Shown: piece by piece, positions 20,469 through 56,126 of the stretch | Layout of the letters: the number at the start of each line of letters is the position of its first letter | How positions within the stretch are numbered: position 1 is the first letter of the stretch | NCBI GenBank assembly: GCA_001786365.1 | Contig: MFWK01000022.1 | Location: 15,087 to 79,086, forward strand | DNA from: Candidatus Nomurabacteria bacterium RIFOXYD2_FULL_35_12 | GTDB taxonomy: Bacteria; Patescibacteriota; Minisyncoccia; Phycocordibacterales; UBA9973 | Direction of reading: 5' to 3' | DNA: 64,000 nt | Made by a program: the position numbers and the translations under genes | Notes under the pieces: generated by a model | What the model was told of the DNA's origin: nothing | The model's input: only the letters and a program-made list of their open reading frames with translations | The model's database searches: none

Positions 20469-20584
20469 CCCGTTAGAAGTCGCGGTCGCGAATTTTATTT
20501 GGGATAATTGTATAAATTGTTTATTAAATTAATTAGCGGGGATAGGTTTTTCAAAAGAAAGACCGCGACCTGCTTCTAAGCGGG
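20469..20584. repeat. Family A MITE-like element, copy A1 (TIRs CCCGTTAGAAG...CTTCTAAGCGGG)
   Basis: cccgttagaagtcgcggtc at 20469.. and gaccgcgacctgcttctaagcggg at ..20584 are imperfect inverted repeats about 75 nt apart. The right end directly abuts the topA ATG (20585). Confidence 0.75.
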
Positions 20585-22870
20585 ATGAAATTATTAATTG
20601 TTGAGTCACCATCAAAAGCAAAAACAATCGAGAAATACTTGTCCGCCGATTCAGGGGCGGATCGAGATCATTTTACTGTGCGTGCATCGGTGGGACACAT
20701 TCGCGATTTACCGAAATCAAATAAAATAGCAATAGACATAGAAGCAGGCTTTGTCCCCCATTATGAAATTTCAAAAGGAAAAGAAAAAATTGTTCACGAA
20801 TTGCAAAGCTTGGCTGAAAAAGCGACTGAAATATTACTAGCGACAGACCCCGACCGTGAAGGAGAAGCTATCGCTTGGCATATAGAAACTCTTTTAAAGG
20901 CTGATAAAAAAGTGGAAGCTCCTATTAAGCGAGTGACTTTTCATGAAATCACCAAAGAAGCAGTTCTCGAAGCCATAGAACATCCTCGCAAGATTGATAC
21001 AGCCTTACGCAAAGCCCAAGAAGCGCGTAGAGTCTTGGATCGTCTTGTAGGCTATGACCTTTCTGGTTTAATTTGGAAAAAGGTTCGTTATGGACTTTCT
21101 GCCGGGCGTGTTCAATCCCCTGCGCTTCGCATAATCATGGAACGTGAGCGTGAGATACGAGCATTCGTGCCGGAAAAATTCTGGAAGCTTTTAGGATTAT
21201 TTGAAACTGTTAAAAAAGAAAAAATAACTTTAGAATGTTCAGAAGAACCAAGAGACAGAAAACTTGTAGACAAAATACTTGAAAATGGTAAAAAGGGAAC
21301 TTGGATAATTAACAACGTAAAAGAATCCGAACAGAAACGTTCCCCTCGCGCACCTTTTACTACTTCTACCTTGCAACAAACTGCTAGCTCTCGACTCGGC
21401 TACTCGCCTTCCCGCACAATGCAGATAGCGCAGAAACTTTATGAAGCCGGACATATCACATATATGCGAACCGATAGCACAAACCTTTCCGCTATAGCGC
21501 AAGGACAAATTGTTTCTTTTATTAAAAATAAATATGGAAAAGAATATGCAGAAGGAAGAATTTATAAAACTAAATCAAAAAATGCGCAGGAAGCCCATGA
21601 AGCAATTCGCCCTACACATATAGACAAACTTATCGCTGGGACTGAAGACCAAGATAGGTTATATAGATTAATATGGGAACGAGCTATTTCTTCCCAAATG
21701 ACTGACGCAAAGTTATTAAAAACAAAAATTTCTGCAATTATTAAAGATCACGAAGATTTACCAAACTTTTCTGCTAACGGCTCCCGTTTACTTTTCCCTG
21801 GATGGCTCAAAGTAGATGCTGATGCTCGTGGCGATGATGTAGAATTACCTAAATGTAATGTCGGAGAAGAATTAAAACTGATAAATCTTTCAAGTGAAGA
21901 AAAATTTACTGAACCTCCAGATAGATATAGCGAAGCAGGCCTTGTCAAAGAATTAGAAGCTAGAGGAATCGGAAGACCATCCACCTATGCGTCTATTATG
22001 AGAACAATAGAAGACAGGGGCTATGTAAACAAAGAAGGAAAAACATTATTCCCTACTGATGTTGGCGAAGTTGTTTCTGATTTCTTAGAAAAACATTTTA
22101 TGAATTACATCTCCGATAGCTTTACGGCAGAGATGGAAGATGAACTCGATGAAATCTCTCGAGGTGAACGTGAATATGAGAAAACATTGAAAGATTTCTA
22201 TGGACCATTCTTAAAAGATGTAAAATCAAAAGAAAAACTAGAAAAAGCTACAAATTTGGGTGATGCTCCAGAAAATATAAAATGTCCAAAATGTAGATCA
22301 ACTATGATTATAAAACTCTCACGCGGAGGGAAATTTTACTCTTGTTCAAAATATCCGGATTGTGATGGAGCCTTGATGCTCGATGGAACAGAATTAAAAG
22401 GACCAGAAGAAACTGGAGAAAAATGTCCTGAATGTGGCGACCCCGAAGGAAAACAAACTTCCAACGGGGCAGGGGAAAAAGGAAAATCTAAATCAAAAGG
22501 AGGTGTGTTAGTTATTAGACAGAGACGAGATGGCACCGGTACTTTTATTTCTTGCTCGCGTTATCCAAAATGTAAATTTATAAAAAGTGACAAAGCAGAC
22601 GAAGAAAAAAAGAAAACGGGTGTACTTTGCCCTATTTGTAAAACTGGAGACATCAGCGAGCGTCGTGGACGATTCGGAATTTTTTATTCCTGTTCAAATT
22701 ATCCAAAATGCAAATTTGCCATAAAAGCAAAACCAACAGGTAAAATATGTAAAGAATGCGGAAGCTTGATGATGGAAGGCACAAAAACCATTCCCGAAAG
22801 ATGCAGTAATAAATCTTGCCCTCAACACAATCCACATAAATTACTCAAGAAAGGTTTAAGCATTGAGTAA
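20585..22870 (+). CDS. topA: DNA topoisomerase I with C-terminal Cys4 zinc ribbons
   Basis: 761 aa. Toprim MKLLIVESPSKAKTIEKYL...TDPDREGE; at least four C-terminal CxxC...CxxC ribbons. Confidence 0.9.
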   Translation: MKLLIVESPSKAKTIEKYLSADSGADRDHFTVRASVGHIRDLPKSNKIAIDIEAGFVPHYEISKGKEKIVHELQSLAEKATEILLATDPDREGEAIAWHIETLLKADKKVEAPIKRVTFHEITKEAVLEAIEHPRKIDTALRKAQEARRVLDRLVGYDLSGLIWKKVRYGLSAGRVQSPALRIIMEREREIRAFVPEKFWKLLGLFETVKKEKITLECSEEPRDRKLVDKILENGKKGTWIINNVKESEQKRSPRAPFTTSTLQQTASSRLGYSPSRTMQIAQKLYEAGHITYMRTDSTNLSAIAQGQIVSFIKNKYGKEYAEGRIYKTKSKNAQEAHEAIRPTHIDKLIAGTEDQDRLYRLIWERAISSQMTDAKLLKTKISAIIKDHEDLPNFSANGSRLLFPGWLKVDADARGDDVELPKCNVGEELKLINLSSEEKFTEPPDRYSEAGLVKELEARGIGRPSTYASIMRTIEDRGYVNKEGKTLFPTDVGEVVSDFLEKHFMNYISDSFTAEMEDELDEISRGEREYEKTLKDFYGPFLKDVKSKEKLEKATNLGDAPENIKCPKCRSTMIIKLSRGGKFYSCSKYPDCDGALMLDGTELKGPEETGEKCPECGDPEGKQTSNGAGEKGKSKSKGGVLVIRQRRDGTGTFISCSRYPKCKFIKSDKADEEKKKTGVLCPICKTGDISERRGRFGIFYSCSNYPKCKFAIKAKPTGKICKECGSLMMEGTKTIPERCSNKSCPQHNPHKLLKKGLSIE

Positions 22871-22924
22871 AACTCAATATTAAAAAAAATTGAAGCTTAG
22901 CCCACCTTGGGCTATAATGCCTTT

Positions 22925-24394
22925 ATGGCAAATGTTAAGGAAGTAATAAACCTTATTTCTGGAGGAATAAGTAAAAAGGAGAAAGAACTTATAGAAAAAG
23001 CCTATAAATATGCAGAAGATGCGCATGAAGGTCAAAAAAGATTAAGCGGAGATCCATATTTTATTCACCCCTTTGAAACTGCAAAGATTTTAGCTTCACT
23101 CGGAATGGATACCCAAACTATCGTGGGTGGATTTTTACATGATATTTTAGAGGATACAAAAATTACAGAGAAAAATGTAGAAGAAGAATTTGGTTCTGAA
23201 GTATTATTTTTGGTTAAAGGCGCGACAAATTTAGGTAAATTAAAATATCGAGGACGAGAAAGATATGTAGAAAGTTTGAGAAAATTTTTCTTTGCGATGG
23301 CAAAAGATCTACGTGTAGTTATAATAAAATTTGCAGACAGACTTCATAATTTAAGAACATTACAATATCAAAGAGAAGACAAAAGGAAAAGAATTGCCAT
23401 AGAATCTATTGAAGTTTATGCTCCACTTGCAAACCGTCTTGGAATGGGAAAACTAAAAGGCCAATTAGAAGATGCCGCTTTTCCATATGCTTATCCAAAA
23501 GAATATGCGCAAACTGAAGAAATAATAAAAGAAAAAAAAGATTTATATAAAAAAAATCTATCTGAAATACAAAAACAACTTGAAAAAGAACTACTAAAAA
23601 ATAAAGTGAAAATAATTGAGGTAGACCACAGAATGAAACGCAAATATAGTTTATGGAAAAAACTTGTAAAACGTGAAATGGATTTAGAGAAAGTATATGA
23701 CATAATTGCCTTACGTATCGTGCTCGAAACTGTGGAAGACTGTTATAAAGTGCTCGGAATAATTCATTCTATTTGGAATCCATTACCCGGAAGAATAAAA
23801 GATTATATAGCTCTTCCAAAGCCAAATGGCTATCGTTCCATTCACACTACAATCTTTACCGGTTCAGGTGATGCGGCTGAAATCCAAATAAGAACGAAAG
23901 AAATGCATGCCGAAGCGGCGCATGGCATTGTCGCGCATTTTGCTTACAAAGAAGATAAAGAAAAAAAAGTTAAAAACGACAAATTAAAATTTAAGTGGCT
24001 TGAAGAACTAAAAGAAATAAACTATACACCGAGTGAACCTCAAAAATTTCTAGAGCATTTAAAAACAGATTTCTTTAATGACCGTATTTTTGTCTTTACT
24101 CCCGAAGGAGATGTCATAGATCTACCTGAAGATTCGAGTCCTATAGATTTTGCTTATTCAATACATTCAGCTATTGGAGACCATATTTCTGGCGCAAAAA
24201 TTAATGGAAAGATGAGTCAAATTTATTCAAAATTAAAAAATAGAGATATTGTGGAAATAATTAAGAAAAAAGATGCTCACCCATCAGGAAAATGGCTCGA
24301 ATATGTGAAAACAACCATTGCAAAAAAACATATAAAGTCATATTTAGAAAAAAATAATCTAGCAAACAAGCTTAAATCTTTTGGTAAATCTTAA
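22925..24394 (+). CDS. Small bifunctional (p)ppGpp synthetase/hydrolase (Rel/SpoT homolog; HD + synthetase domains, no TGS/ACT)
   Basis: HD motif HPFETAKILASLGMDTQTIVGGFLHDILEDT. Synthetase motif DIIALRIVLE...YRSIHTTI. The ORF track starts at TTG 22907; the in-frame ATG at 22925 is preceded by TATAAT. Confidence 0.8.
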   Translation: MANVKEVINLISGGISKKEKELIEKAYKYAEDAHEGQKRLSGDPYFIHPFETAKILASLGMDTQTIVGGFLHDILEDTKITEKNVEEEFGSEVLFLVKGATNLGKLKYRGRERYVESLRKFFFAMAKDLRVVIIKFADRLHNLRTLQYQREDKRKRIAIESIEVYAPLANRLGMGKLKGQLEDAAFPYAYPKEYAQTEEIIKEKKDLYKKNLSEIQKQLEKELLKNKVKIIEVDHRMKRKYSLWKKLVKREMDLEKVYDIIALRIVLETVEDCYKVLGIIHSIWNPLPGRIKDYIALPKPNGYRSIHTTIFTGSGDAAEIQIRTKEMHAEAAHGIVAHFAYKEDKEKKVKNDKLKFKWLEELKEINYTPSEPQKFLEHLKTDFFNDRIFVFTPEGDVIDLPEDSSPIDFAYSIHSAIGDHISGAKINGKMSQIYSKLKNRDIVEIIKKKDAHPSGKWLEYVKTTIAKKHIKSYLEKNNLANKLKSFGKS

Positions 24395-24395
24395 A

Positions 24396-25391: not shown

Positions 25392-25465
25392 ACAATTATT
25401 TTAGCATATTTTTTTTATTTGCAATAATTGATTTCAGCTTGATTTTCTAGTATATTAAATAAATT

Positions 25466-25549
25466 GCCGGGGTGGCGAAATTGGTAACCGCAATTGACTC
25501 AAAATCAATCGGGGGCAACCCCTTGGGAGTTCGAGTCTCCCCCCCGGCA
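25466..25549 (+). tRNA. tRNA-Leu (anticodon CAA), long variable arm
   Basis: GCCGGGGTGGCGAAATTGGTAACCGCAATTGACTCAAAATCAATCGGGGGCAACCCCTTGGGAGTTCGAGTCTCCCCCCCGGCA. 7-bp acceptor stem, anticodon loop CTCAAAA, extra arm GGGGGCAACCCC, T-loop TTCGAGT. Confidence 0.8.
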
Positions 25550-25624: not shown

Positions 25625-25636
25625 ATACTATTGAAT

Positions 25637-37350: not shown

Positions 37351-37902
37351 TTACCCCATTACTTCTTTCTGTTTTTTCTCAAAACTTGCTTCTAGGTTTC
37401 TATTTGCCTCATCAATGATTTTTTGTAGTTCGTCTTTTGCTCGGAATTTTTCATCTTCGGTCAATTTTCCTGCTTTTTCTTTCTCTTCCACATCTCTCCA
37501 AATACGTTCTCGTTCTCGACGAACTGTAATTCTTTGTTCCTCTAATTTTTCTTTTAAGACTTTTACGAGGTTTTGCCTCGTTTCTGTAGTTAACTGAGGA
37601 AAAATAACTCTGATACCTAAGTCATCAGTAGCCACAGAGAGACCCAAGTTTGCAGCCACTATCGCCTTTTCAATATCTTTTACCTGACTTTTGTCCCAAG
37701 GCGTGATACGCAGAGTCTTTGAATCTTCTATGTTAATATTTGCAACATTTTTAAGCGGAACTCGTGAGCCATATGACTCTACTGATACTCCGTCTAGAAC
37801 CATAGGCGACGCACGGCCTATATTTAACTGACCGTATTCTTTAGTCAAAAATTTCCCTACTTTTTTTAACTCTGTTTTAAATTGTGAAAAGTTGTATTGC
37901 AT
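37351..37902 (-). CDS. frr: Ribosome recycling factor
   Basis: 183 aa. ...LNIGRASPMVLDGV...; typical Frr length and charge pattern. Confidence 0.9.
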   Translation of the reverse strand: MQYNFSQFKTELKKVGKFLTKEYGQLNIGRASPMVLDGVSVESYGSRVPLKNVANINIEDSKTLRITPWDKSQVKDIEKAIVAANLGLSVATDDLGIRVIFPQLTTETRQNLVKVLKEKLEEQRITVRRERERIWRDVEEKEKAGKLTEDEKFRAKDELQKIIDEANRNLEASFEKKQKEVMG

Positions 37903-38020
37903 CCCGTTAGAGATAGAGAATCTTTAGATTCTCGTAATTTTATTTAATAATTCGACAAAACATACTATCATTATTATTTACATACCCGTTTGATTTTTTA
38001 ACAATATGATCTCTAACGGG
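37903..38020. repeat. Family A MITE-like element, copy A2 (TIRs CCCGTTAGAGAT / ATCTCTAACGGG)
   Basis: Perfect 12-bp terminal inverted repeats about 94 nt apart. The left end directly abuts the frr start codon (37902). Confidence 0.75.
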
Positions 38021-38053
38021 ATTGCATATTTCCATTGTAGCACTATTTTTCAT

Positions 38054-39736
38054 TTAGTAAACCTCTTGCTGATAGCATTTCTCACAAAAAATTATCTCTG
38101 ACCGGTCTGGAGAATATGGTGTCTCAAATTTATTTTTACATCCACCCTTCATACATTTCCTATGCCAAAGTTTATTTGGTCCCCTATTTTTAAATCGTCT
38201 TGTATGTCTACACTCAGGGCAATTTCGCGGAATCGGTATATTCATTCTTTTATAAAAAATAAGTTCGTCTGTAATTATCCGATAATTTTTTTCACATTCT
38301 ATGCATACAAAAACTTCTTTATTCACGTCAAAATCTTTTGGTAATTCCAAAATAGAATCTGGAAAATTTTTCCAATCTATGGTTTCTTTACCAAAAGTGC
38401 CACGTGATGTGTCTTCCCATTTAAATCCTTGTTTTAGAGCTTCTTCTTTATTTAATGGAAACTCATCCATTACCGAAGATTCATTGTATCCAAGCGGAGC
38501 AAATTCTTTAGGGAAAAATTCCCCATAAATTCCTTCCTTTTTCATTTTCTCAATAATTTCAACGCGCAATTTCTCATATTCTTCTTTTGTGTATTGCTTA
38601 TTTAAAATGCAATAAGAGCCTTGAATCAAACCTGCACACCCAAAACAATTATTAGAATTAGGACAATTTAAACAATATTCCATAAAATTAGATTCCCAAC
38701 AATAATAACTGCAAATCACATTAGCGCATTGCATTCCAATGTTTAAAGAGTTGTAAATTAGTTCAGCTGTACGTCCGGCAGTATTACAATCCATACAATT
38801 TTTTGCTTCACGCCAAACATGAATAGAATAAGCATTATCTTCCGCATCATAAGAATGAAAACAATGCTTATTATTTCTAACATTCTTCATATAATTACCC
38901 GTAGAATTGACAGCATTTGTAATTTCCGCAAATTTTCTGGGCTTGTCTTTAATAAAATCTGCGAATTCTTTTTTAAAACTCTCAACACCAGAATAAGTGT
39001 CTAGCTTAAAAGATTTTAATTTTTTCTCGTATTCTTCTTTTGTGTATGGTTTATTAAAAATATGATATTTTTGTTCCCTTAAATTTATACATCCAAGACA
39101 GCTTGTACATCCCCTACAATCAAGCAGAAAAAAACTATCTAGACAGTTGTAACAACCTTTTGACCAACGCAAAGAATGACAATCATAACAATCGTCGACT
39201 TCATAAGAAAGTTCAACTTGATTCGTAAAAGAACAATCTGTTAAATCTTTTGAAAGCTGTATCCAATAGCAGTTCGTGCAATTTTCATTGTTAGAAGATT
39301 CCATAATCATGTAACAATTTTTTGTATCAGCAGTATGGTTAAGATATTCAGAATTAACACTGTTCATATGGACGAGAGCAGGTTTTGGAACTTTCTGCCA
39401 CAATTCATTGAACTGCTCAAAAAAAGATTTTTTAGGATTATATTCCAACGCATAATCTTTACCCTGCAAATCATCACTACGCCAACATTTGTGACACCAT
39501 ACGGGATAAGTCTTGTTGGCGCTAAACATAGAGATGGTGTTTTTTTTACAATTATCGCAGACACGTTTATATAGAAACCTTTCATTCCTAAAAATTAGCC
39601 GAAGCTGTGAACGGCACTCTGGACAAAGCTTTGGTGGAAGTACTCCCATCTTTTCATAAAATCCAAAGTCATTCGGCTCTATAGTAAAGTATTTTTTGCA
39701 GTTCTGACATATTTTATTTTCTACTATATACGCCAT
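38054..39736 (-). CDS. Cys-rich multi-zinc-ribbon protein, paralog 3
   Basis: 560 aa. N-terminal CQNCKKYFTIEPNDFGFYEKMGVLPPKLCPECR; internal repeats ending YCILNKQYTKEEYEKL; C-terminal CPECRH...CMKGGCKNKFETPYSPDRSEIIFCEKCYQQEVY. Confidence 0.6.
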   Translation of the reverse strand: MAYIVENKICQNCKKYFTIEPNDFGFYEKMGVLPPKLCPECRSQLRLIFRNERFLYKRVCDNCKKNTISMFSANKTYPVWCHKCWRSDDLQGKDYALEYNPKKSFFEQFNELWQKVPKPALVHMNSVNSEYLNHTADTKNCYMIMESSNNENCTNCYWIQLSKDLTDCSFTNQVELSYEVDDCYDCHSLRWSKGCYNCLDSFFLLDCRGCTSCLGCINLREQKYHIFNKPYTKEEYEKKLKSFKLDTYSGVESFKKEFADFIKDKPRKFAEITNAVNSTGNYMKNVRNNKHCFHSYDAEDNAYSIHVWREAKNCMDCNTAGRTAELIYNSLNIGMQCANVICSYYCWESNFMEYCLNCPNSNNCFGCAGLIQGSYCILNKQYTKEEYEKLRVEIIEKMKKEGIYGEFFPKEFAPLGYNESSVMDEFPLNKEEALKQGFKWEDTSRGTFGKETIDWKNFPDSILELPKDFDVNKEVFVCIECEKNYRIITDELIFYKRMNIPIPRNCPECRHTRRFKNRGPNKLWHRKCMKGGCKNKFETPYSPDRSEIIFCEKCYQQEVY

Positions 39737-39751
39737 GGCTGATATATAATT

Positions 39752-40474
39752 TTATAATTTTTCTGGAATAATCAAAGCTACTGATTCCATCAAAGTTTTA
39801 GCTGAACTTCCCGGCATACGCAAAAACTCGCGAACTTTGAAAATATGCTCAAAAATTCTAGTGTCAAGGGGCATCCTTGACATCTTGCTATGTAAAACGG
39901 ATTCTAGTGTGTTTAAGAGCTTTAGGGCTTTTGAACGATTAGATTCTATACTTATTTCTTCCTCACTTTCCTCTTCTTTCTTTGGTAATAATTCTTTTAT
40001 AAAATCAATCCTTCTTTGCAAAGGCATATTTATAAATTTCTCCCCGACGTTTTCAGTCGGGGCCCCGACCTCTTCGAGCGTCGGGGCTGCCTTTATTAAA
40101 TAAAATCTAGAAACTAAAGTTTTTAAAAGAGTATTAATATCTGGCACCACAAGAAAAAAATGCGTATTTTCTATCGGCTCTTCAAACATTTTCAATAAAA
40201 CATTTTGCGCATCTAAAGAAAAACTATTTACACTAATCACAAATACTTTTTTAAAAGAAGAAAAAGCTTTGTTGGTAGACATTGAGCGTAAATCAAAAGC
40301 CTCATCAATTTTAAAATTATCTATCGAAATATGGCAAAAATCAGGATTGCCAGAAGTTTTTATATCTAAACTTTCACAAAATTCTAAAATCTCAGGCACA
40401 ACTTTTTCCCTATCTCCTTCTATGAGGTATGCATGATGCAAATTATCTTTATTTAAATGCCTAGCTAAGTTCAT
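39752..40474 (-). CDS. holB: DNA polymerase III delta-prime subunit-like clamp-loader protein
   Basis: 240 aa. HAYLIEGD...LLKMFEEP...VSRF pattern of HolB. Carries the in-frame family B element (APTLEEVGAPTENVG). Confidence 0.65.
   Translation of the reverse strand: MNLARHLNKDNLHHAYLIEGDREKVVPEILEFCESLDIKTSGNPDFCHISIDNFKIDEAFDLRSMSTNKAFSSFKKVFVISVNSFSLDAQNVLLKMFEEPIENTHFFLVVPDINTLLKTLVSRFYLIKAAPTLEEVGAPTENVGEKFINMPLQRRIDFIKELLPKKEEESEEEISIESNRSKALKLLNTLESVLHSKMSRMPLDTRIFEHIFKVREFLRMPGSSAKTLMESVALIIPEKL
40032..40076. repeat. Family B GC-rich double-hairpin element, copy B1 (in-frame inside holB)
   Basis: CCCCGACGTTTTCAGTCGGGGCCCCGACCTCTTCGAGCGTCGGGG: two tandem CCCGAC/GTCGGG hairpins, highly GC-rich. 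Confidence 0.75.
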
Positions 40475-40529
40475 AAAGTTATAAAGTTCTTAAGGTTGTA
40501 AAGTTTGAAAAATTAAATAGTTCTTAAGA

Positions 40530-40649
40530 AAAGCCTTGCGCAGGAGCTTAGAAAATAAATGAGGTAATCCGAATATTATTTTCTTGAGCGACGAGCAGTT
40601 CGCTGGCGAAGCTTCGCCAGATAGATTGCTTTTCGAGAGAAGCTATTTA
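40530..40649. repeat. Family F ~120-bp repeat, copy F1 (candidate structured RNA or MITE)
   Basis: AAAGCCTTGCGCAGGAGCTTAGAAAATAAA...TATTATTTTCTTGAGCGACGAGCAGTTCGCTGGCGAAGCTTCGCCAGATAGATTGCTTTT. About 90% identical to 48327..48445 and to the reverse complement of 61409..61511. Confidence 0.8.
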
Positions 40650-40662
40650 GTTTTTCAAAGAA

Positions 40663-41676
40663 CTACTTTTTGCTTAAAACTGTTTTTTTATACACGTCCA
40701 AATGATCGAGAGCTATACCTGTGCCTTTTACTACACAGAAAAGAGGATCCTCAGCCAAAGCAGCCTTTACTCCAGTCTTTCTATAAACCAAATCAGTGAA
40801 ATTTCGAAGTTGAGAAGAACCTCCAGTCATGATTATTCCTTGATCAATAATATCTGAGGCTAATTCTGGCGGAGTTTCTTGCAATACATCTTTGATAGCT
40901 TGAATTATTTGTTTTAGTTCTCCATCTATCGCTTTGACTATTTCATTTGTTCCCACTCGCGCTGACCTAGGCAAGCCTTGAATAAAATCCCTACCTTTTA
41001 TCGTCACACTGAGCTCTTCTTCTAAAAGCACCGCTGCACCGATTTTAATTTTTACTTCTTCGGCTGTCCTATCACCGATAGCTAAGTTAAAAGTTTTTTT
41101 AATATAATCAGCTATAGCGCCATCTATTTTATTTCCAGCGCACTTTACTGATTTAGAGGCCACAATTCCGCCAAGCGAAATGACTGCTACGTCTGTCGTG
41201 CCCCCACCTATGTCCACAACCATATGCCCTTTCGATTCATAAATTGGAATTCCCGCGCCGATGGCTGCTAAGATAGGCTCTTTGACTACATAAGCATTCT
41301 TTGCACCAGCGCGAATTGCAGCTTCTATGACTGCTCGCCTCTCTGTACTCGTGACTCCTGCAGGAACCGAAACCATCACATCCGGTTTGAAAAAATTAAA
41401 TTTCCCCATCGCTTTATTTATAAAATAACGAAGCATTGCCTCAGTCACACGATAATCTGCTATGACTCCATCTTTCATCGGGCAATAAGTAATGATAGAT
41501 TCTGGGGTCTTTCCAATCATATCTTTGGCTTCAAAACCAATAGCTAGAATTTTATTGTCTTGTTCAGAAACCGCTACAACAGAAGGCTCGTTTAGAATAA
41601 TTCCTTTTCCAGGTAAAAAGACCAAAGTATTGGCTGTTCCTAAATCTATGCCTAGTTTTTTCGTAAAAATACCCAT
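40663..41676 (-). CDS. mreB: Rod shape-determining protein MreB
   Basis: 337 aa. GIDLGTANTLV, DIGGGTTD actin-fold motifs. Confidence 0.9.
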   Translation of the reverse strand: MGIFTKKLGIDLGTANTLVFLPGKGIILNEPSVVAVSEQDNKILAIGFEAKDMIGKTPESIITYCPMKDGVIADYRVTEAMLRYFINKAMGKFNFFKPDVMVSVPAGVTSTERRAVIEAAIRAGAKNAYVVKEPILAAIGAGIPIYESKGHMVVDIGGGTTDVAVISLGGIVASKSVKCAGNKIDGAIADYIKKTFNLAIGDRTAEEVKIKIGAAVLLEEELSVTIKGRDFIQGLPRSARVGTNEIVKAIDGELKQIIQAIKDVLQETPPELASDIIDQGIIMTGGSSQLRNFTDLVYRKTGVKAALAEDPLFCVVKGTGIALDHLDVYKKTVLSKK

Positions 41677-41794
41677 CCCGTTTAGAAGCAGGTCGCGGTC
41701 AACAAACCTCGACTTTGCTTAGTTATGTTATTAAATTTTTTATCTTTTATAAACATGATTCTTATATAAAACTGCGACCGTGGCTTCTAACGGG
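41677..41794. repeat. Family A MITE-like element, copy A3
   Basis: CCCGTTTAGAAGCAGGTCGCGGTC...GCGACCGTGGCTTCTAACGGG. The left end directly abuts the mreB start codon (41676). Confidence 0.75.
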
Positions 41795-41836
41795 ACCCAT
41801 GAGCCTATGTTATCATATTTATGTTAAAATCAAAGA

Positions 41837-42172
41837 ATGGATGACGAAGAAAAAAATGATATAGAAAACAATCTCAAAAACCCATTTATAGGATATTTGG
41901 CAAATTTAAAGAAACATAAACAAGCCATAAACCCTGTTCATGAAATTGTAAATTGCTATTATAAAATGAATGGCTGGGAAAAAATGCCAAAAGATTTTTA
42001 TACCGGTAGATATGCTTATAATAAGCTCGCGAAAGAAGCAAAAATGCTCTACCAAGCTTGTAATGAAGTTTTAGATGATGCTATTTGGGCTTTAGACAAA
42101 ATGAAATACCTCGCCGAGAAAGGCAAATTCGACTGGTCTATAATCACCTGTTTGAAACACAAATTAAAATAG
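41837..42172 (+). CDS. Hypothetical protein
   Basis: 111 aa ORF, no recognisable motif. Confidence 0.3.
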   Translation: MDDEEKNDIENNLKNPFIGYLANLKKHKQAINPVHEIVNCYYKMNGWEKMPKDFYTGRYAYNKLAKEAKMLYQACNEVLDDAIWALDKMKYLAEKGKFDWSIITCLKHKLK

Positions 42173-42173
42173 T

Positions 42174-42878
42174 TTAAGAAACAATTACTGTAAATTCCCC
42201 TCTTTGCTTGTCAGGATTTTTATTGAAATATTCTAAAATTTCGTGTGGTAAACCAGTTTTAAATTCTTCATAGATTTTTGTCAATTCGCGAGCTACGCAG
42301 ACTTTTTTATGAGGGCAAAATTCAACAAGCGATGCTAATGTTTTTAAAATTCTGTGAGGAGATTCATAAAATACCATCGTGCGTTCAGAAATTGCTATTT
42401 CTTTAAATAAAGTTTCTCTGCCTTTCTTGTGCGGAAGAAAACCAAGAAAAGTAAATTCATGAATAGGCATTCCTGATGCAGAAAGCGCGGCAATAACGGC
42501 TGAAGCTCCAGGGATTGGAATCACTTGAACTTCTTCATTGGTAAATTTTTCTTTTATTCTAGAAACGAGCATTGAGCCCGGGTCTGATATTGTGGGAGTG
42601 CCAGCATCAGAAACCAATGCAACATTTTTCCCGTCGTATAATAATTTAAAAATTTTATCTAATTTCTCATTCTTTCCGAGTTTATAATCAGCTCCAGCTA
42701 CATCGTCAGACGGATAGCTCATCGTTTCTTTATTTATTTCATATTTATTTAAAATTTTCTTTGTCTCTCGCGTATCTTCACACAATATCAAATCCACGCT
42801 TTTAAGCGTCTCGATAGCTCGGAGTGTGATGTCTCCCATATTTCCTATCGGCGTCGCCACAACATAAAATTTAGACAT
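42174..42878 (-). CDS. rsmI: 16S rRNA (cytidine1402-2'-O)-methyltransferase
   Basis: 234 aa. FYVVATPIGNMGDITLRAIETLKSVDLILCEDTR tetrapyrrole-methylase fold of RsmI. Confidence 0.85.
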   Translation of the reverse strand: MSKFYVVATPIGNMGDITLRAIETLKSVDLILCEDTRETKKILNKYEINKETMSYPSDDVAGADYKLGKNEKLDKIFKLLYDGKNVALVSDAGTPTISDPGSMLVSRIKEKFTNEEVQVIPIPGASAVIAALSASGMPIHEFTFLGFLPHKKGRETLFKEIAISERTMVFYESPHRILKTLASLVEFCPHKKVCVARELTKIYEEFKTGLPHEILEYFNKNPDKQRGEFTVIVS

Positions 42879-42883
42879 AAATT

Positions 42884-43330
42884 TTATTTCCTATACTTTC
42901 TAGTTCTCCACTTGTCTGCAATCTTAACACGAGTGAGTGAACGTTCGAGTTCAGCTTCAAAATGCTCAAAGTCCACATGGTCTTTGTTTTCCATTTGTTT
43001 TTCCAATTCAATAGCACGAGCTTTTGCTTTTTCTATTTTTTCATCTGAAATTTCAGACACATGTTCGGCAAAGTCCGCCAAAATAGCGACTTCGGTAATT
43101 TTATTTTCACCTTGTTTTATTTCCATAAACCCTCCAGCAACTGCCATCGGAACATGTTCACCATTTACGACAGCCACAATATCTCCAGATGCAAGACCTG
43201 CAATGAGTGGAATATGTTCCGGCAAAATGGTTATCTCACCTTCCGTAGTAGGCAAAGTGACTTGATCTACCATTTCTTCCAGAACTAGTCTTTCTGGGGT
43301 GATTATTTTAAGTTTTAATTGTTTTGACAT
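42884..43330 (-). CDS. atpC: F1 ATP synthase epsilon subunit
   Basis: 148 aa. LKLKIITPERLVLEEMVDQVTLPTTEGEITILPEH... beta-sandwich plus C-terminal helices. Confidence 0.8.
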   Translation of the reverse strand: MSKQLKLKIITPERLVLEEMVDQVTLPTTEGEITILPEHIPLIAGLASGDIVAVVNGEHVPMAVAGGFMEIKQGENKITEVAILADFAEHVSEISDEKIEKAKARAIELEKQMENKDHVDFEHFEAELERSLTRVKIADKWRTRKYRK

Positions 43331-43455
43331 AAATTTTTGACTTTAAAATTTTTAAATAGTGCTTTTAAAAATCGTACGGAGGCCGACGGGCCGAAGTCTT
43401 AGCAAAAATTTAGTAAAATTTTATGCGGGTTTTTAAAAGTACCTATTTAAAAATT

Positions 43456-44856
<1,401 letters not shown>

Positions 44857-45861
44857 TTAACTTACACTTGCCATACCCGCACTGATTTCTGATATTTCCC
44901 TAGTAATGTTTCCCTGCCTTGCTTTATTGAACACCAGGGTCAGATCATCTATCATTTCTCCTGAAGCATCAGAAGCATTTTTCATTGCGACCATTCGACT
45001 CGACTGTTCAGAAGCATTTGATTCGAGCAACATTTGATAAATCTGCATCCTTGTAATCTTCTCCGCGAGTGACCCTATCAATGTGTTCATGTCTCCTTCT
45101 ATTAAATAACTTATACTTTTTTCTCTCCCGACGCTTTCGGTCGGGACTCCGACCTCTCCAGGCGTCGGAGCTAAATTGTTTATTAAATCTTGTAATTCTG
45201 TTTTAGATACAGGCAATATTTGTTTTATATTTGGCTTCTGATTTAAAGCGGAAATAAAATCAGTATAAGCTACTAAAACTTTATCGTAATGAAGAAGGAT
45301 ATATTCATCTATGGTAAATTTTGAAATTGGAACAACTTCTGTCAAAGAAATATTATTGCTCAAATCTGCAAAAGTGGCAACGACATTTACTCCGAGTCTG
45401 CGCATCGCCACATCTCCTTTTTTACCGACAGAAACAATATCTACCCCGTTAGAAGCAGGTCGCCCCGAGGTGACCGTAGCACTCTCGTGCTCGAGAGAGC
45501 GGCTTCTAACGGGGTCTAAATTTATGTTTTGACTTTTTAAAAATGAAATCGTTTTTTTAATAACTTGCGCATTATAAGATCCACACAAACCCCTGTTTGA
45601 TGTAATGAGCACAAGCAACACATTTGCTTTTACCCCACCTTTCTTTTCTCTTTCAGTAAAAAGTGGATGGGAATTCTCCTCTATATTTTTAGCTATTGAT
45701 GTAAGAACTTCCCACGAATATCCAGCATAAAGACGTGACGCCAAAGTAGAAGCCACCGCACGCTTCATCTTACTAGCAGCCACGAGCTCCATCGCTTTCG
45801 TGATTTTCTTTGTGTTCTTTACAGACTTTATGCGTCGTTTTATTTCTTTAGTTCCCGCCAT
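44857..45861 (-). CDS. atpG: F1 ATP synthase gamma subunit (with two in-frame repeat-element insertions)
   Basis: Conserved N-terminus MAGTKEIKRRIKSVKNTKKITKAMELVAASKMKRA at 45861 (the ORF track's upstream extension to 45954 is unlikely). Inserts encode LDPVRSRSLEHESATVTSGRPASNG (family A) and APTPGEVGVPTESVG (family B). Confidence 0.85.
   Translation of the reverse strand: MAGTKEIKRRIKSVKNTKKITKAMELVAASKMKRAVASTLASRLYAGYSWEVLTSIAKNIEENSHPLFTEREKKGGVKANVLLVLITSNRGLCGSYNAQVIKKTISFLKSQNINLDPVRSRSLEHESATVTSGRPASNGVDIVSVGKKGDVAMRRLGVNVVATFADLSNNISLTEVVPISKFTIDEYILLHYDKVLVAYTDFISALNQKPNIKQILPVSKTELQDLINNLAPTPGEVGVPTESVGREKSISYLIEGDMNTLIGSLAEKITRMQIYQMLLESNASEQSSRMVAMKNASDASGEMIDDLTLVFNKARQGNITREISEISAGMASVS
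45127..45168. repeat. Family B element, copy B2 (in-frame inside atpG)
   Basis: CCCGACGCTTTCGGTCGGGACTCCGACCTCTCCAGGCGTCGG. Same architecture and reading frame (A-P-T...VG..TE.VG) as B1 and B4. Confidence 0.75.
45444..45514. repeat. Family A element, copy A4 (in-frame inside atpG)
   Basis: CCCCGTTAGAAGCAGGTCGCCCCGAGGTGACCGTAGCACTCTCGTGCTCGAGAGAGCGGCTTCTAACGGGG. Termini match A1/A3, and the interior holds nested palindromes. Confidence 0.7.
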
Positions 45862-50940: not shown

Positions 50941-51261
50941 TTAGTATTCTCGGCGTCCGCCTCCTCCCCCATAACCTCCTCGGTCATTGCCTCCACTTCG
51001 TGGTGGGCGAGCTTCCATTGGGCGAGCTTCGTTGACAGTAAGTTTGCGTCCTTCGAATTCTTGATCGTTGAACATCGAGATAGCTTTTGCAGCTTCATCT
51101 TGAGATGACATTTCTACGAATCCAAAACCTTTTGAACGACCAGACATCTTGTCCATGATAATAACAGCGGAAACAACGTTTCCAGCCTGTGCGAAGAGCT
51201 CTTTTAGGGCACCTTCGACTGTGCTGTAAGGGAGTCCCCCTACATATAGCTTTGTAGCCAT
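50941..51261 (-). CDS. Glycine-rich RNA-binding protein (single RRM)
   Basis: 106 aa. RNP2 KLYVGGL, RNP1 KGFGFVEM, C-terminal GGYGGGGGRR tail. Confidence 0.8.
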   Translation of the reverse strand: MATKLYVGGLPYSTVEGALKELFAQAGNVVSAVIIMDKMSGRSKGFGFVEMSSQDEAAKAISMFNDQEFEGRKLTVNEARPMEARPPRSGGNDRGGYGGGGGRREY

Positions 51262-51393
51262 TTTCTTTACTTCTCCCGTTTTTAAAAATCGGGCAAAAAC
51301 TACTTAATAAAACGTAGAAACTCTTTTCGCTAAGTGAGAAACTACGATGAAAAGCATAACATATTTAAAATGAAAAGTAAATAAAGAGAATCT

Positions 51394-52359: not shown

Positions 52360-52438
52360 ATAATTATATTATACAAAAATAAATCGTTGAGTCGTAACTC
52401 TTTGCAGGGGTTTCGAGGCTGACGAGCCGAGAATTTCA

Positions 52439-52463
52439 GGATTTTTTAAGCTTCAAAAAATCC
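52439..52463. terminator. Hairpin GGATTTTTTAAGCTTCAAAAAATCC (9-bp stem) between rpmE and prfA
   Basis: Perfect inverted repeat GGATTTTTT/AAAAAATCC. Confidence 0.5.
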
Positions 52464-52494
52464 GTACCGAAAAAGAGTTATGACGAGAAAGATT

Positions 52495-52719
52495 TTATTT
52501 CTTTGCTTTAGCAGTTACGGTTGCAGCACGTCGCTTGTTGAATCTCTCTACGCGTCCAGCAGTGTCCATAATTTTTTCATTACCAGTATAAAAAGGATGG
52601 CAATTACTGCAGATTTCCATAGCAATTTCAGGCATTGTGGAACCAACTTCAAAAACCGCCCCGCAAGCGCAAGTGGCTTTTGTCTTTATATCGTATTTTG
52701 GATGTATCTCTTTTTTCAT
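52495..52719 (-). CDS. rpmE: 50S ribosomal protein L31
   Basis: 74 aa. MKKEIHPKY...CxCG...CSNCHPFYTG signature. Confidence 0.85.
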   Translation of the reverse strand: MKKEIHPKYDIKTKATCACGAVFEVGSTMPEIAMEICSNCHPFYTGNEKIMDTAGRVERFNKRRAATVTAKAKK

Positions 52720-52748
52720 TGCTCAAAAAGATTATCACGAATTCTATT

Positions 52749-54158
52749 TTAAAGCAAATCTATATCAGCTTGAATTTTTAATTTCAATTTTTGAACGCTT
52801 CGGCTATAAGAACAAGAAGTTCCCGTGCCTTTTTTTACTGTTTCATATTTTTTTGTTTTTGTATTATATATTTGGTTAAGACCTGTTCCATAGTAACTGC
52901 AAGCTGCTTTGTTTTGCTTACTAGTGCTCGTGCCCACTGCTCCAAGATCTGATAAAAACATTCCTGAAGCCATAAATGCATCTCTCGGAGCCCACGGATT
53001 GGCAACAGAACCCAAAACATCTTTCAGACGACTAGCAAAAATCTTCCAAGTAGAAGGAATAAATTGTGCCGGCCCCATAGCCCCGCCATAGCCTTTTATA
53101 TTTGCCACCGGACAAGAAACAGCAGTTTTATAAGCATTAAATCCCAGCTCCACAGTCATACTCAAAAATACCGGAACATCACGCGTAGGATTCATCACAT
53201 TTGCAAAAACTTTTCCAGTATTTTTACCGACGCCAGCCCCTGTATCAGGATTCGTCAGATAACACTGCCCGACATTTGCGCCAAGGCTGGACTCTTGAGT
53301 TAAAATCGCCAACAAAAATGCCGGATCAACTCCTAATTTACTTTTTACTTCATTTGCATATTGCAACGCTGTTCCGAAATCAATTTTTTGCGAAATACCG
53401 GCAAGACTAAAAAGAGCACTGCGAATTTTATTTGCTTGAACTTTTTTTGCATCTGCTAATTTTTGATATTCTGCCTCTTTATTTTTTGAAATAGATAAAA
53501 GTTGTTTTTTCTCTGCTTCGGATTTCGCCACAGTTTTCTGAGCACTTTCTAACTCAGCTTTTGCATCAAGTTCGGCACTTTGTTTATTTTCTAAATCTTT
53601 TTTTGCAACTTCAGTTTGTGTTTTGGCTCCATTGACTATATCAATCGAAGATTTTACAGCTTGCTTTATCGAAGTGTAAGATTCTAAATCACTATAAAAA
53701 TCTGAAACGCTTTTATTTGAAAGAATTAAACTGACTAAATTCCCATCATCAAATTCATTTGTATTTCTGAGCAATTGAGCTAAAGATTCATGTTCACGCT
53801 CTATCTTGTCGGAAAGTGATTTGATGGTATTAACTTTTTCAGTAATATTTACTTTTAATTGAGCTATTGTGAGAGCTCTGGCTTTTATTTTTGCTTTTAA
53901 TGTATTTATCTTGCTAGTTAGATAATCCACATCCCCTTTCAAAGTTCCAGAAGTTTTTTGTTGCTCTTTTTGTTGTTCCAATAAAGCTGAAAGCTGAGCT
54001 TCTATCTGAGAAAGTTCATTTTGGCAATAATCTTTATCGGACTGAGCGGAAGATACTGTAAGCGTCAAACAATCAAAAACAGCATATGTTTTATGCCCTG
54101 AAAGACTAAAAAATAAAGATATTATAAAAATAAAAGCTATGACTGCGTTTCTCGTCAT
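52749..54158 (-). CDS. Secreted coiled-coil protein with C-terminal lytic-transglycosylase-like (SLT) domain
   Basis: 469 aa. Signal peptide MTRNAVIAFIFIISLFFSLSGHKTYA, ~250 aa coiled coil, then AFLLAILTQESSLGANVGQ (the E-S catalytic context of SLT domains). Confidence 0.45.
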   Translation of the reverse strand: MTRNAVIAFIFIISLFFSLSGHKTYAVFDCLTLTVSSAQSDKDYCQNELSQIEAQLSALLEQQKEQQKTSGTLKGDVDYLTSKINTLKAKIKARALTIAQLKVNITEKVNTIKSLSDKIEREHESLAQLLRNTNEFDDGNLVSLILSNKSVSDFYSDLESYTSIKQAVKSSIDIVNGAKTQTEVAKKDLENKQSAELDAKAELESAQKTVAKSEAEKKQLLSISKNKEAEYQKLADAKKVQANKIRSALFSLAGISQKIDFGTALQYANEVKSKLGVDPAFLLAILTQESSLGANVGQCYLTNPDTGAGVGKNTGKVFANVMNPTRDVPVFLSMTVELGFNAYKTAVSCPVANIKGYGGAMGPAQFIPSTWKIFASRLKDVLGSVANPWAPRDAFMASGMFLSDLGAVGTSTSKQNKAACSYYGTGLNQIYNTKTKKYETVKKGTGTSCSYSRSVQKLKLKIQADIDLL

Positions 54159-54190
54159 AGCTTTTATTATACCATAATTTTATAAAATTT

Positions 54191-54916
54191 TTACTTCTTT
54201 TCTGCCTTCTTTTCCCCGCCTGCAACGCTATGCGCAGCATTGCGGGCAGGTTCTTTAGCTGGTGTGGTGGTGGCTGGTTCTGCTCCAGGCACTCCTTCTT
54301 CTTCTTTCTTGCCTTTCTTCTCTACTTCAATAGCGGACAAATCAGGAGCAACTACGACTTCTTCTTTTTCTTCAACTTGAGCAACGACAGAAGCTACGAC
54401 ATCGCCTGTATTTGTGATGACGACGACTCCGGATGGCAATTTTATATCAGAAACGAAAACGTTATTATCCAAGGTTTCAAGTTTTGAAATATCTACAACT
54501 AAATTGTGCGGTAAATCTGCAGGCAAAGCTTCGATTTCTATTTCATGAAGAACTTTCACAAGATTTCCAATACCACTCTTTACCGCATTTGAAATACCTT
54601 CGAATACAAGAGGAACCTTGACTCGAATTTTCTTTTTCATATCAATAACCAAAAAATCCACATGGATTGGCTCATCGGTGACTGGGTCTACTTGCACTTC
54701 ATGAATAAGAGCATTCACATCGCCAGCAGGAGTAGAAATCTTGATAGCAGAAGACTCTCCGGCATCTCGCCAGATTTTCTTGAATTCAACGATAGAAAGT
54801 GTTACAGATGTGGTCTTTTCCCCTGCTCCGTAAAAAACAGCTGGGATTTTCCCAGACTTTCTCAAAACACCCAATTTTGTATCTAAATCTCTTTTATCAG
54901 CTTTAATTACAAACAT
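54191..54916 (-). CDS. rplY: 50S ribosomal protein L25 / general stress protein Ctc (with C-terminal repeat-containing tail)
   Basis: Conserved start MFVIKADKRDLDTKLGVLRKSGKIPAVFYG at 54916 (the ORF track's 54976 start is probably too far upstream). The C-terminal tail ...EPARNAAHSVAGGEKKAEKK is encoded by the family C element. Confidence 0.75.
   Translation of the reverse strand: MFVIKADKRDLDTKLGVLRKSGKIPAVFYGAGEKTTSVTLSIVEFKKIWRDAGESSAIKISTPAGDVNALIHEVQVDPVTDEPIHVDFLVIDMKKKIRVKVPLVFEGISNAVKSGIGNLVKVLHEIEIEALPADLPHNLVVDISKLETLDNNVFVSDIKLPSGVVVITNTGDVVASVVAQVEEKEEVVVAPDLSAIEVEKKGKKEEEGVPGAEPATTTPAKEPARNAAHSVAGGEKKAEKK
54214..54250. repeat. Family C element, copy C2 (in-frame at 3' end of rplY)
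   Basis: CCCCGCCTGCAACGCTATGCGCAGCATTGCGGGCAGG: 35 of 37 positions identical to C1, same frame (PARNA.HSVAGGE). Confidence 0.7.
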
Positions 54917-55045
54917 ATAACTTAATACAATATTATCTCCTCGACTCGGAAATGGAAAAAGAAAGATATTTTCCATTTCCCTCGCCTTACGTCGCTAATA
55001 AAGATAGTATATATAAAAATACTAAAAAAGCAAATATAAATTCAA

Positions 55046-56044
55046 CTATTTATATTTCCCAATAGATGCCAGGCTATTATTTTGAGCAGATTGCAAGAGA
55101 AGCTCTTGCGCACCTGATACATCATTTGGATTCTTTGCCCAAGATTTAAAAGCAGGATTTTGAATCGCTCGGCCATAAGAAAATGAAAGTGGCCAAGGAA
55201 GAAAATTATTCTTATGCATTGCATTCAAATTCATTGTCGCCTCGAGATCGAACTGCCCACCGGAGAGAAAAACAATTCCACCGATATCCTCCGGCACATG
55301 TTCCTTTAAACATCTCAAAGTTATTTCGGCTACTTTTTCCGGAGAAGATTTTTCTTTTGATTCTTTTCCAGAAATAACCATGCTGGTTTTCAAAATCATC
55401 CCCGGTAAGAAAACATTCGCATCTTTAAGCTTGGCAAAAACCATTTCCAGATTGCGAGCAGTCACTTGATAGCATTTTTCTAAAGTATGATTTCCATCTA
55501 TTAAAATTTCTGGTTCAACGATTGGTACAATGTCATTTTCTTGGCACAATATCGCATATTTTGCGAAAATTTCCGCATTTACTTTCATACAATCAAAGCT
55601 AGGAATATGCACACCTATAGTATAAACTGCGCGCCATTTTGCAAAAGTCGCGCCGAGTTTCTTATACTCTTTTAACCTCTCACTTAAACCTTCTAAGCCT
55701 TTAGTTATTTTTTCTCCATCATGATTCGAAAAATCTGTAGTGCCAGCATCAACTTTTATTCCAATTTCTATTCCTTTTGAATTTAAAATTGAAACAAAAC
55801 TTTTCCCATCAACGGTTTTTTGTTTTATTGTTTCATCAAAAAGGATATAACCGGAAATATACTTTTCTATCTTTGGCGCGGTAATAAGAAGTTCACGATA
55901 CTCTCTGCGTTTTTCCTCTGTATTTGGGACACCAAGCTTTAGAAAACGTCCAGCACTCGTATTTAAACTCTCATCAATGGCAAGTATCCCTTTTGGTATC
56001 TTCATCAAACGAGCAACTGTTTTGGTGAGAATTTTTTTATTCAT
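55046..56044 (-). CDS. fba: Fructose-bisphosphate aldolase, class I
   Basis: 332 aa. GILAIDESLNTSAGRFLKLGV...EKRREYRELL matches class I (Schiff-base) FBA. Confidence 0.8.
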   Translation of the reverse strand: MNKKILTKTVARLMKIPKGILAIDESLNTSAGRFLKLGVPNTEEKRREYRELLITAPKIEKYISGYILFDETIKQKTVDGKSFVSILNSKGIEIGIKVDAGTTDFSNHDGEKITKGLEGLSERLKEYKKLGATFAKWRAVYTIGVHIPSFDCMKVNAEIFAKYAILCQENDIVPIVEPEILIDGNHTLEKCYQVTARNLEMVFAKLKDANVFLPGMILKTSMVISGKESKEKSSPEKVAEITLRCLKEHVPEDIGGIVFLSGGQFDLEATMNLNAMHKNNFLPWPLSFSYGRAIQNPAFKSWAKNPNDVSGAQELLLQSAQNNSLASIGKYK

Positions 56045-56126
56045 CCCGTTAGAAATAGGAAATGCTTTGCATTTCCATTGTTATATTACTTTTAATAAAA
56101 ATTTTAACCATATGATTTCTAACGGG
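56045..56126. repeat. Family A MITE-like element, copy A5
   Basis: TIRs CCCGTTAGAAAT / ATTTCTAACGGG, with an internal palindrome GGAAATGCTTTGCATTTCC. The left end abuts the fba start codon (56044). Confidence 0.75.

Follow-up and report, generated by a model that had tools for sequence, protein, structure and literature searches.

Five copies of a family of short palindromic sequences lie in the 64,000-nt stretch of the Candidatus Nomurabacteria bacterium RIFOXYD2_FULL_35_12 genome analyzed here (contig MFWK01000022.1; hereafter the window). Four of them directly precede the start codons of topA, frr, mreB, and fba, and one lies in frame within atpG. All five are insertions, and the family probably consists of short, non-coding, non-autonomous palindromic mobile elements, similar to MITEs (miniature inverted-repeat transposable elements) and Rickettsia palindromic elements (RPEs), whose insertion regenerates the start codon of the gene that is entered. 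The copies are called insertions because the corresponding sites of relatives are empty and because each copy is bracketed by a 4–5 bp duplication. The family is widespread in ultra-small groundwater bacteria of the Candidate Phyla Radiation (CPR; Patescibacteria), and start-codon adjacency is a real and general property of the family in CPR.

All five copies described in the original prediction are present in the window, together with their relic start codons and genes, as follows.

20463..20468 (+): relic topA start, ATG AA plus the terminal T of copy 1; TGAA is repeated at 20586-20589
20469..20584 (+): copy 1, 116 nt, between the relic start codon and the topA start; GTCGCGGTCGC/GCGACCGCGAC inner-stem subfamily
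20585..22870 (+): topA, Pfam topoisomerase I; A(20585) and T(20468) form the outermost stem pair of copy 1
37351..37902 (-): frr, ribosome recycling factor, Pfam RRF
37903..38020 (-): copy 2, 118 nt, flush with the frr start at 37902; subfamily with the conserved gene-proximal hairpin GAGAATCTAAAGATTCTC
38021..38061 (-): relic frr start ATGCAAT (38027-38021; TGCAA duplicated, 5 bp) and the kept host promoter
40663..41676 (-): mreB, Pfam MreB
41677..41794 (-): copy 3, 118 nt, copy-1 subfamily, flush with the mreB start at 41676
41795..41815 (-): relic mreB start ATGGGT (41800-41795; TGGG duplicated), with the extended -10 TGATAACAT plus 6 nt ahead of it
44857..45861 (-): atpG, ATP synthase gamma, 334 aa here versus 299-307 aa in relatives
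45444..45514 (-): copy 4, in frame within atpG; G+C-rich core of 69 nt and a terminal C..G pair
55046..56044 (-): fba, class-I fructose-bisphosphate aldolase (Pfam)
56045..56126 (-): copy 5, 82 nt, flush with the fba start at 56044; shortened version of the copy-2 subfamily, hairpin GGAAATGCAAAGCATTTCC
56127..56132 (-): relic fba start ATGAAT (TGAA duplicated)

Copies 2, 4, and 5 have perfect CCCGTTAGA...TCTAACGGG ends and are matched exactly by a paired-end pattern for which no matches are expected in shuffled sequences. Copy 1 carries a 1-nt bulge in the 3' arm (CTAAGCGGG), and copy 3 a 1-nt bulge in the 5' arm of the + strand (CCCGTTTAGAA). The starts of the open reading frames (ORFs) at 20585 (+), 37902 (-), 41676 (-), and 56044 (-) are in each case the base directly after the element, and the four ORFs have the expected Pfam assignments, confirming the gap-free junctions. 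Such adjacency is beyond chance, as was originally claimed: with about 2 x 70 gene starts per 64 kb, four flush copies out of four have p ~2e-11, and the window holds 614 intergenic TNNA sites versus 28 RTGNA start codons, an expected start share of 4.4%. Copy 4 is read in frame as PVRSRSLEHESATVTSGRPASNGV and adds 25 residues to AtpG (25 codons including the duplication). All five copies fold into long, stable hairpins (z-scores -3.5 to -6.2), and their density is about one per 13 kb.

Empty sites were found by comparing the syntenic atp-mreB-holB-frr region in seven related Parcubacteria lineages, with MreB identities of 91-95%. The mreB site is empty in all seven, the promoter being followed directly by the gene, with a divergent spacer that measures 36-38 nt except in L144, where it is 83 nt. 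The mreB locus of the window has the relatives' sequence, interrupted: ...TGATAACATaggctc ATGGGT, then 118 nt, then ATGGGTATT. The extended -10 TGATAACAT followed by 6 nt before the relic mreB ATG is the arrangement seen at the relatives' empty sites. Likewise, the frr site is empty and uninterrupted in six lineages (TGCTATAATgaaaatATGCAATAC and similar); in L128, for example, the host sequence is contiguous at both empty sites, ...TGTTATATTtaggctcATGGGA and ...TGCTATAATgaaaatATGCAATAC. The 25-residue AtpG segment is absent from all four aligned relatives, and its position corresponds to a variable loop.

Two sets of copies from elsewhere extend these observations to hundreds of copies. The first set comes from one scan of 185,579 species genomes, which yielded at least 119 stretches, with 137 usable copies among the matches listed; the second comes from a metagenome scan for a variant of the ends (at least 120 stretches; 127 non-redundant copies among the matches listed). 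Counts given below for either set refer to these listed copies. A copy is termed flush when it directly abuts an ORF start (ORF of at least 60 aa in the first set); classing of neighborhoods by greedy ORF calls was unreliable for start positions and was not used.

The duplications in the window are TGAA (topA), TGCAA (frr), TGGG (mreB), TGAA (fba), and TAGA (atpG; TCTA on the + strand, 45440-45443 and 45515-45518), within the flanking repeats ATGAAT/ATGAAA, ATGCAAT twice, ATGGGT twice, ATGAAT twice, and, in atpG, T(TAGA)C...G(TAGA)T. The AATCCCG reported at the distal ends captured half of this structure: the distal flank is really the duplicated start codon plus 2-4 nt (ATGAAT, ATGCAAT, ATGGGT, ATGAAT). 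In the first set, the two duplicates (positions L5-L2 versus R2-R5) agree fully in 46 of the 64 copies at starts and in 40 of the 73 others (86/137 in total), and in the variant set they agree in 59 of 85 start-flush copies. The identical duplications of the variant set always begin with T and end with A in 58 of 59; they include TGAA (40), TGGA (14), and TGTA (3). The duplication consensus is T-N-N-A, with a length of 4 bp and rarely 5 bp (frr).

This arrangement shows how the start codon is rebuilt. The insertion point is just past the A of the original start codon, so that the old ATG and its promoter stay upstream, and the new start codon consists of the terminal purine of the element (A, sometimes G) and the duplicated TG, leaving the reading frame unchanged. 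No gap separates element and gene, since the inverted repeat ends on the very A that opens the functional ATG. The proposal that the element contributes the AT of the ATG is therefore correct for the first base (A or G), whereas the TG comes from the duplication; when start-adjacent copies have C..G ends, the gene start is GTG and the upstream relic is ATG in 7/7 listed copies. The opposite, a GTG relic upstream of an ATG gene start, occurs in two cases. On each side, the base next to the core always pairs, as T..A or C..G. A strict duplication of 5 or 6 bp is excluded by the C..G copies, 7 of 31 of which agree at neither of the outer positions. Most simply, the data describe an element Y-CCCG...CGGG-R with a 4-bp T-N-N-A duplication (5 bp at frr).

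Flush copies number 64 among the 137 of the first set. The share is 55/91 in CPR genomes (36 copies elsewhere) and 2/32 in Omnitrophota, Planctomycetota, and Deltaproteobacteria (30 elsewhere). Copies unrelated to start codons, which the original prediction regarded as counter-evidence, do exist (in frame within genes, at promoter hexamers, and in intergenic DNA of other phyla), but the bias in CPR remains. Start-flush genes outside the window include dnaA, pgk, a release factor gene, and genes for ATP synthase subunits. The loci outside CPR (L012, L061, L120, L011, L032, L044, L070, L079, L089, L115) have the same core with C..G ends in intergenic positions, flanks of the GTAAAC...GTAAAT type, and TAAA/TTTA duplications; one near-identical copy is present in three deltaproteobacterial metagenome-assembled genomes. 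On viral contigs, 12 matches were found and none is start-adjacent, and carriage by phages was rejected on this ground.

A sister variant at the same frr start codon as copy 2 provided a prediction. In L124 (11749-11824) and L125 (9730-9805), a copy with the same ATGCAAT repeat has the ends CCCGTACGA...TCGTACGGG, in which two base pairs are changed on both arms. An frr copy with variant ends leads to the prediction that variant copies elsewhere are equally start-bound, and indeed 85 of 127 variant copies are flush, with several more at contig ends. T..A ends are found in 83 of these 85, and the same interior subfamilies accompany the original and the variant ends. Independent insertions have thus hit the frr start codon (window versus L124/L125, with different end variants), and the topA start codon has been hit independently in three genomes, each time by another subfamily. 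Tandem copies on a single start codon occur at L048 (5899-6278) and L054 (7674-7895), where two or three copies have ATGAAT between each; the middle copy of L048 has a further end variant, CCCGTAGT...ACTACGGG. At five loci (L053, L083, L107, L090, L229), the distal flank directly ahead of the element is ACTTGT, with no start-codon duplication, and the complementary ACAAG is seen on the other side in L090 and L114; such a flank may stem from rearrangement, from one insertion nested in another, or from an inverted repeat that extends further. In addition, palindromes of ~30 nt with related ends (CCCCGTAGCGAGC..GCTCTGCTGTGGGG and GCCGTTAGAGAAC..TTCTCTAATGGGG) occur in L144 (about 9925-9955) and L089 (874-905), and may represent the family's relatives in minimal or decayed form.

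Copies of the first and variant sets are 62-132 nt in length and contain only short accidental ORFs. The terminal stem of 13-14 bp, Y-CCCGT(TA/AC)GA-RNN ... NNY-TC(TA/GT)ACGGG-R, has nine fixed pairs and four covarying ones: at positions -1, 10, 11, and 12, Watson-Crick pairing reaches 0.88-0.96, shuffling lowers it to 0.38-0.58, and as many as four pair types occur. The stem covaries likewise in the variant set. Past position 12 the arms differ, and the interior is variable, asymmetric, and unrelated between subfamilies. Orientation relative to the gene is the same in 36 of 41 pairs with strong interior similarity and reversed in five. In the copy-2/5 subfamily, a gene-proximal hairpin GGAAAT...ATTTCC, followed by TAYYTCTAACGGG, is kept with compensatory changes across Saccharibacteria, Paceibacterota, and Wolfebacteria. 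When this hairpin is reversed, a T-rich tract follows and the score is terminator-like, which could explain the orientation bias via selection.

The 69-nt G+C-rich subfamily is 75 nt long with the end pair and duplication, and is inserted in the same frame in AtpG of the window and in RsmH of another Nomurabacteria genome (L009), giving almost identical peptides (PVRSR..ASNG). The other intragenic copies that are read through also have lengths that are multiples of three. A word-index search for proteins with the in-frame insert returned only two short proteins and was uninformative. Rfam 15 gave only tRNAs at the gathering score in the window and 17 loci, and at E<=5 the sole match in window 37800-45600 was a chance mir-210.

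The suggestion that the element supplies a promoter or 5' end is not borne out. The host promoter is intact upstream of the relic ATG: at frr, TGCTACAAT is followed by 6 nt and ATG as in the relatives' empty sites, the promoter TTTACT-16-TGcTACAAT ending 6 nt ahead of the relic ATG. No -10-like hexamer was found at a fixed distance inside the element, an internal promoter consensus scan of the elements was not above shuffles, and a mid-element TGnTAnnnT-like block is good in only ~3/11 aligned copies; an internal promoter is thus unsupported. No Shine-Dalgarno motif precedes the window genes, whose upstream regions are A-rich. In 25 of 124 called genes (window; relatives L122-L128, L001), TANNNT, often in the extended form TGnTAnnnT, ends exactly 6 nt before the ATG; this spacing in about a fifth of genes indicates leaderless transcripts. 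Targeting of leaderless transcription start sites was rejected, as a -10 box lies 6 nt before the relic ATG in 9/48 cases and at 6-8 nt in 26/61, and the background is 25/124 at 6 nt. One copy, at L078 2119-2235, lies within the -10 box of a leaderless-type nth, where, toward the gene, duplication of TATA restores TATACT + 6 nt + ATG.

Transcription from the host promoter would place the element in the 5' leader, as a hairpin whose stem is predicted to pair the A and U of the functional AUG. Such a leader would be tolerated because the hosts initiate without Shine-Dalgarno sequences. Ribosomes starting at the relic AUG may melt the hairpin, or a double-strand-specific RNase may cut the leader; translation begun at the relic AUG would enter the 5' arm with M-x-P-V-R and could unfold the stem. 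Short ORFs that begin at the relic ATG stopped, in the first set, at a TAA in the 3' arm (12) or in an ATGA overlap (5), with lengths biased to 3n+1 and no in-frame fusions. A selected upstream ORF with termination-reinitiation was nevertheless rejected: in the variant set the 3' arm has no TAA, there is no length bias or stop-position rule, and six copies are in-frame fusions, and the relic-ATG frame is open to the same degree as antisense frames.

The start-codon bias exceeds what the target sequence predicts. Across 51 CPR loci, ORF starts account for ~102 occurrences of ATGRR, compared with 420 in the spaces between ORFs and 2,531 within ORFs. Even perfect purging of intragenic copies would leave at most about one-third of ATG-type insertions at starts, and roughly 57 of 60 listed ATG-type copies are found there (binomial p about 7e-24). 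The bias would result from an insertion preference for such sites together with purifying selection for the register that restores promoter, start codon, and frame. Site-specific insertion next to ATG, as first proposed, is in line with a start excess in CPR far above the target motif, although copies are also present at other sites. Random insertion at any T-N-N-A, filtered in compact CPR genomes so that the survivors restore a start codon, a -10, a -35, or the frame, would agree with the loose duplication consensus (TAAA, TTTA, TTGA, TCAA, TAGA, TATA, TGAA, and others), the intergenic copies in other phyla, and the reconstructed empty sites, in which information lies solely at A-T-G-(A/G)-A without an extended motif; other CPR duplications rebuild signals such as TTGAC (L039, L076, L106, L121) and TATACT (L078), and in-frame copies have length 3n. 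Yet lethal intragenic and neutral intergenic insertions would still predict ~4% (TNNA) or at most one-third (ATGRR) at starts, whereas ~60% of CPR copies and nearly all ATG-type copies are observed there. Start-adjacent copies are also no more decayed than the others (perfect duplication in 72% versus 55%, listed copies), which counts against survivorship of old copies, and T..A ends are almost restricted to start sites; filtering of random insertions is therefore rather unlikely as the full explanation. Integration actively steered to translation starts, either because the machinery senses a cue of the initiation region beyond ATG(A/G)A or because the family is a mobile modular 5' leader, can be entertained only tentatively; candidate cues are DNA that is melted or bent where a leaderless promoter meets the start, or a link to the expression machinery. 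Recombination sites for a tyrosine recombinase, such as integron attC-like or Xer/dif-like palindromes, would share the length, conserved ends, and variable center of the elements. The consensus of attC has the core GTTRRRY and the inverse core RYYYAAC, which the 7-mers GTTAGAR and YTCTAAC resemble. The box order is, however, the reverse of that in attC (GTTAGAR first, YTCTAAC last), the last core base is R rather than Y, the duplications differ from copy to copy, unlike a fixed crossover sequence, and the neighbors are syntenic housekeeping genes, not cassettes, making such a site hardly credible.

Two further alternatives concern function after insertion. A domesticated 5' regulatory module that gives the downstream gene a promoter, a leader hairpin with a stabilizing or regulatory role, or a site for protein binding would accord with the strong orientation bias, with the gene-proximal hairpin conserved by compensatory changes in three lineages, with the covarying terminal stem, and with sequestration of the A and U of the AUG; the terminator-like hairpin and T-tract of the reverse orientation imply that orientation matters for expression. 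The insertions are nonetheless young and lineage-specific (the mreB copy is absent in seven lineages, the frr copy in six, and the atpG insert in four), host promoters are kept upstream, a fixed -10-like hexamer and a well-conserved central block are lacking, subfamily interiors are unrelated, the target genes are a functionally mixed housekeeping set, and the same family resides within coding regions and plain intergenic DNA, so that domestication appears improbable. Removal of the hairpin from the mRNA, or its skipping by the ribosome, would rejoin the relic ATG and the gene; direct repeats around a stable hairpin recall take-off and landing sites, and the stop positions and 3n+1 lengths of relic-ATG ORFs in the first set pointed the same way. 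These features were not replicated in the variant set, with its six in-frame fusions, and the relic-ATG frame is no more open than antisense frames. Intragenic copies that keep the ORF open are multiples of three, no Rfam ribozyme or intron was matched, and no convincing case was seen of a real gene that a copy disrupts and that becomes whole without it, with two candidates inspected in detail. Splicing or bypassing was rejected on this limited check: in silico removal restored long ORFs in a few loci, and the two inspected are not real interruptions, the "restored" ORF of L078 being spurious in G+C-rich DNA and the L075 copy lying 7 nt upstream of the true start. An RNA-level element is thus very improbable.

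Several points weigh against the favored interpretation of mobile elements with start-codon-regenerating insertion. The ATG(A/G)A target is too weak to account for the start-codon bias, and the account by preference and selection is incomplete. Among CPR copies, T..A ends occur 48 times at starts and eight times elsewhere, versus seven and 24 times for C..G ends (Fisher p = 6e-9), and T..A ends go almost only with A ahead of the duplication and with start sites; a simple model of a 4-bp duplication and an element-borne end pair does not predict this link. In 1.95 Mb of fetched loci, neither an autonomous copy nor a transposase enclosed by such ends 0.7-3.5 kb apart was found, and a tblastn search with the ISEcp1 transposase of the IS1380 family against all fetched loci, a search of low sensitivity covering little sequence, gave no match. 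At one locus seen in two samples, the relic ATG is ACG in L174 and ATG in L180, with element and gene start unchanged, and translation from the relic AUG is therefore not essential. Finally, the comparative data all come from metagenome-assembled genomes and unbinned contigs.

Mobile elements of this kind would be moved by a cut-and-paste DDE transposase acting in trans, and their CCC...GGG ends and T..A 4-bp target recall piggyBac and IS1380. In piggyBac, the TTAA target is set by a T0-A3 contact, the transposon is excised seamlessly, and the ends are asymmetric (PMC7351741, PMC10140906); IS1380 transposases are cited as its prokaryotic relatives (PMC10140906). The family has (Y)CCCG...CGGG(R) ends, and the ISEcp1 end reads CCTAGATTCTACG; the family and the piggyBac/IS1380 group alike have a 4-bp duplication with T first and A last. 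Unlike the strict TTAA of piggyBac, however, the middle two target bases are free here (TGAA, TGGA, TAAA, TTGA, TAGA), one further Y/R pair is present outside the CCC, and near none of the copies was such a transposase found. The resemblance is a lead, not a demonstrated relationship. Searches for long end pairs and solo ends in the fetched loci gave only chance matches or degenerate short copies.

As originally proposed, the family is MITE-like: the elements are non-coding and shorter than 300 bp, with terminal inverted repeats, target duplications, empty sites in relatives, and many dispersed copies. The structural definition of a MITE holds except for the autonomous partner, of which none was found in the 1.95 Mb. 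RPEs are short palindromic selfish repeats of small A+T-rich genomes that can sit in frame in protein genes and add a peptide, and are said to have been described by Ogata and colleagues in 2000. The copies within atpG and the RsmH gene similarly add a peptide, whereas, comparing by description, the present family differs from RPEs in its clear 4-bp duplications, its main site at start codons, and its hosts, which are CPR and not Rickettsia. We know of no report of start-codon rebuilding by RPEs.

Other short repeats share some of these features. Correia (CREE/NEMIS), RUP, and ERIC elements are multicopy, non-coding sequences of ~100 nt with inverted repeats and target duplications, and their hairpins in mRNA can alter transcript processing, those of Correia being RNase III substrates. 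Correia and RUP have a TA duplication and lie at variable distances from genes, in contrast to the T-N-N-A duplication, CCCGT(TA/AC)GA ends, fixed start-codon register, and codon-forming terminal base of the present family. REP/REPIN-RAYT systems, with IS200-like Y1 transposases, resemble it in hairpins, covarying stems, and a conserved foot, suggesting folded-strand recognition; unlike the present family, REPINs have no target duplication and cluster around the RAYT gene. The sole Y1_Tnp gene seen, an IS200-like gene at L234 7168-7815 (-), has its own hairpin AAATTTTAGTAGTTNAACTACTAAAATT on both sides and looks REP/RAYT-type; as these hairpins are unrelated to the family, a RAYT link was rejected. 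Mobile G+C clusters or "byps" of yeast mitochondria are short G+C-rich palindromic insertions with short duplications. They share with the family an A+T-rich compact host genome and occasional positions in coding regions, but byps are bypassed by ribosomes, and no sign of bypassing or splicing was found for the family. Full-text literature searches found no description of the end sequences or of MITE/palindromic elements in CPR, and the start-codon site preference appears undescribed.

Two further genes were noted, one in the window and one in a relative. In the window, a 560-aa ORF without a Pfam match (38054-39736, -) separates holB and frr and is seen in this genome only; in related genomes, frr follows holB almost directly. 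In L122, a gene for a 592-aa resolvase-domain protein (large serine recombinase; 17590-19368, -) with small ORFs adjoins the conserved ddl-alr-rpmG block, and this region may be an integrated element.

Transposable elements usually persist by avoiding genes or by using safe sites such as tRNA genes and terminators. Here the start codon itself would be the safe site, repaired by the element's own end, and a noticeable share of essential genes would carry a stable hairpin between the old and new start codons. If the family is a modular leader, many CPR housekeeping genes would be under common hairpin-based control. CPR bacteria are uncultured and depend strongly on leaderless transcripts, and translation of an AUG paired at the foot of a 13-bp G+C-rich stem would be a probe of initiation in these organisms. 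For annotation, such loci will lead gene callers to wrong starts or to spurious ORFs upstream, and the in-frame subfamily inflates protein lengths. The conserved ends would also provide a simple marker for horizontal exchange among CPR lineages.

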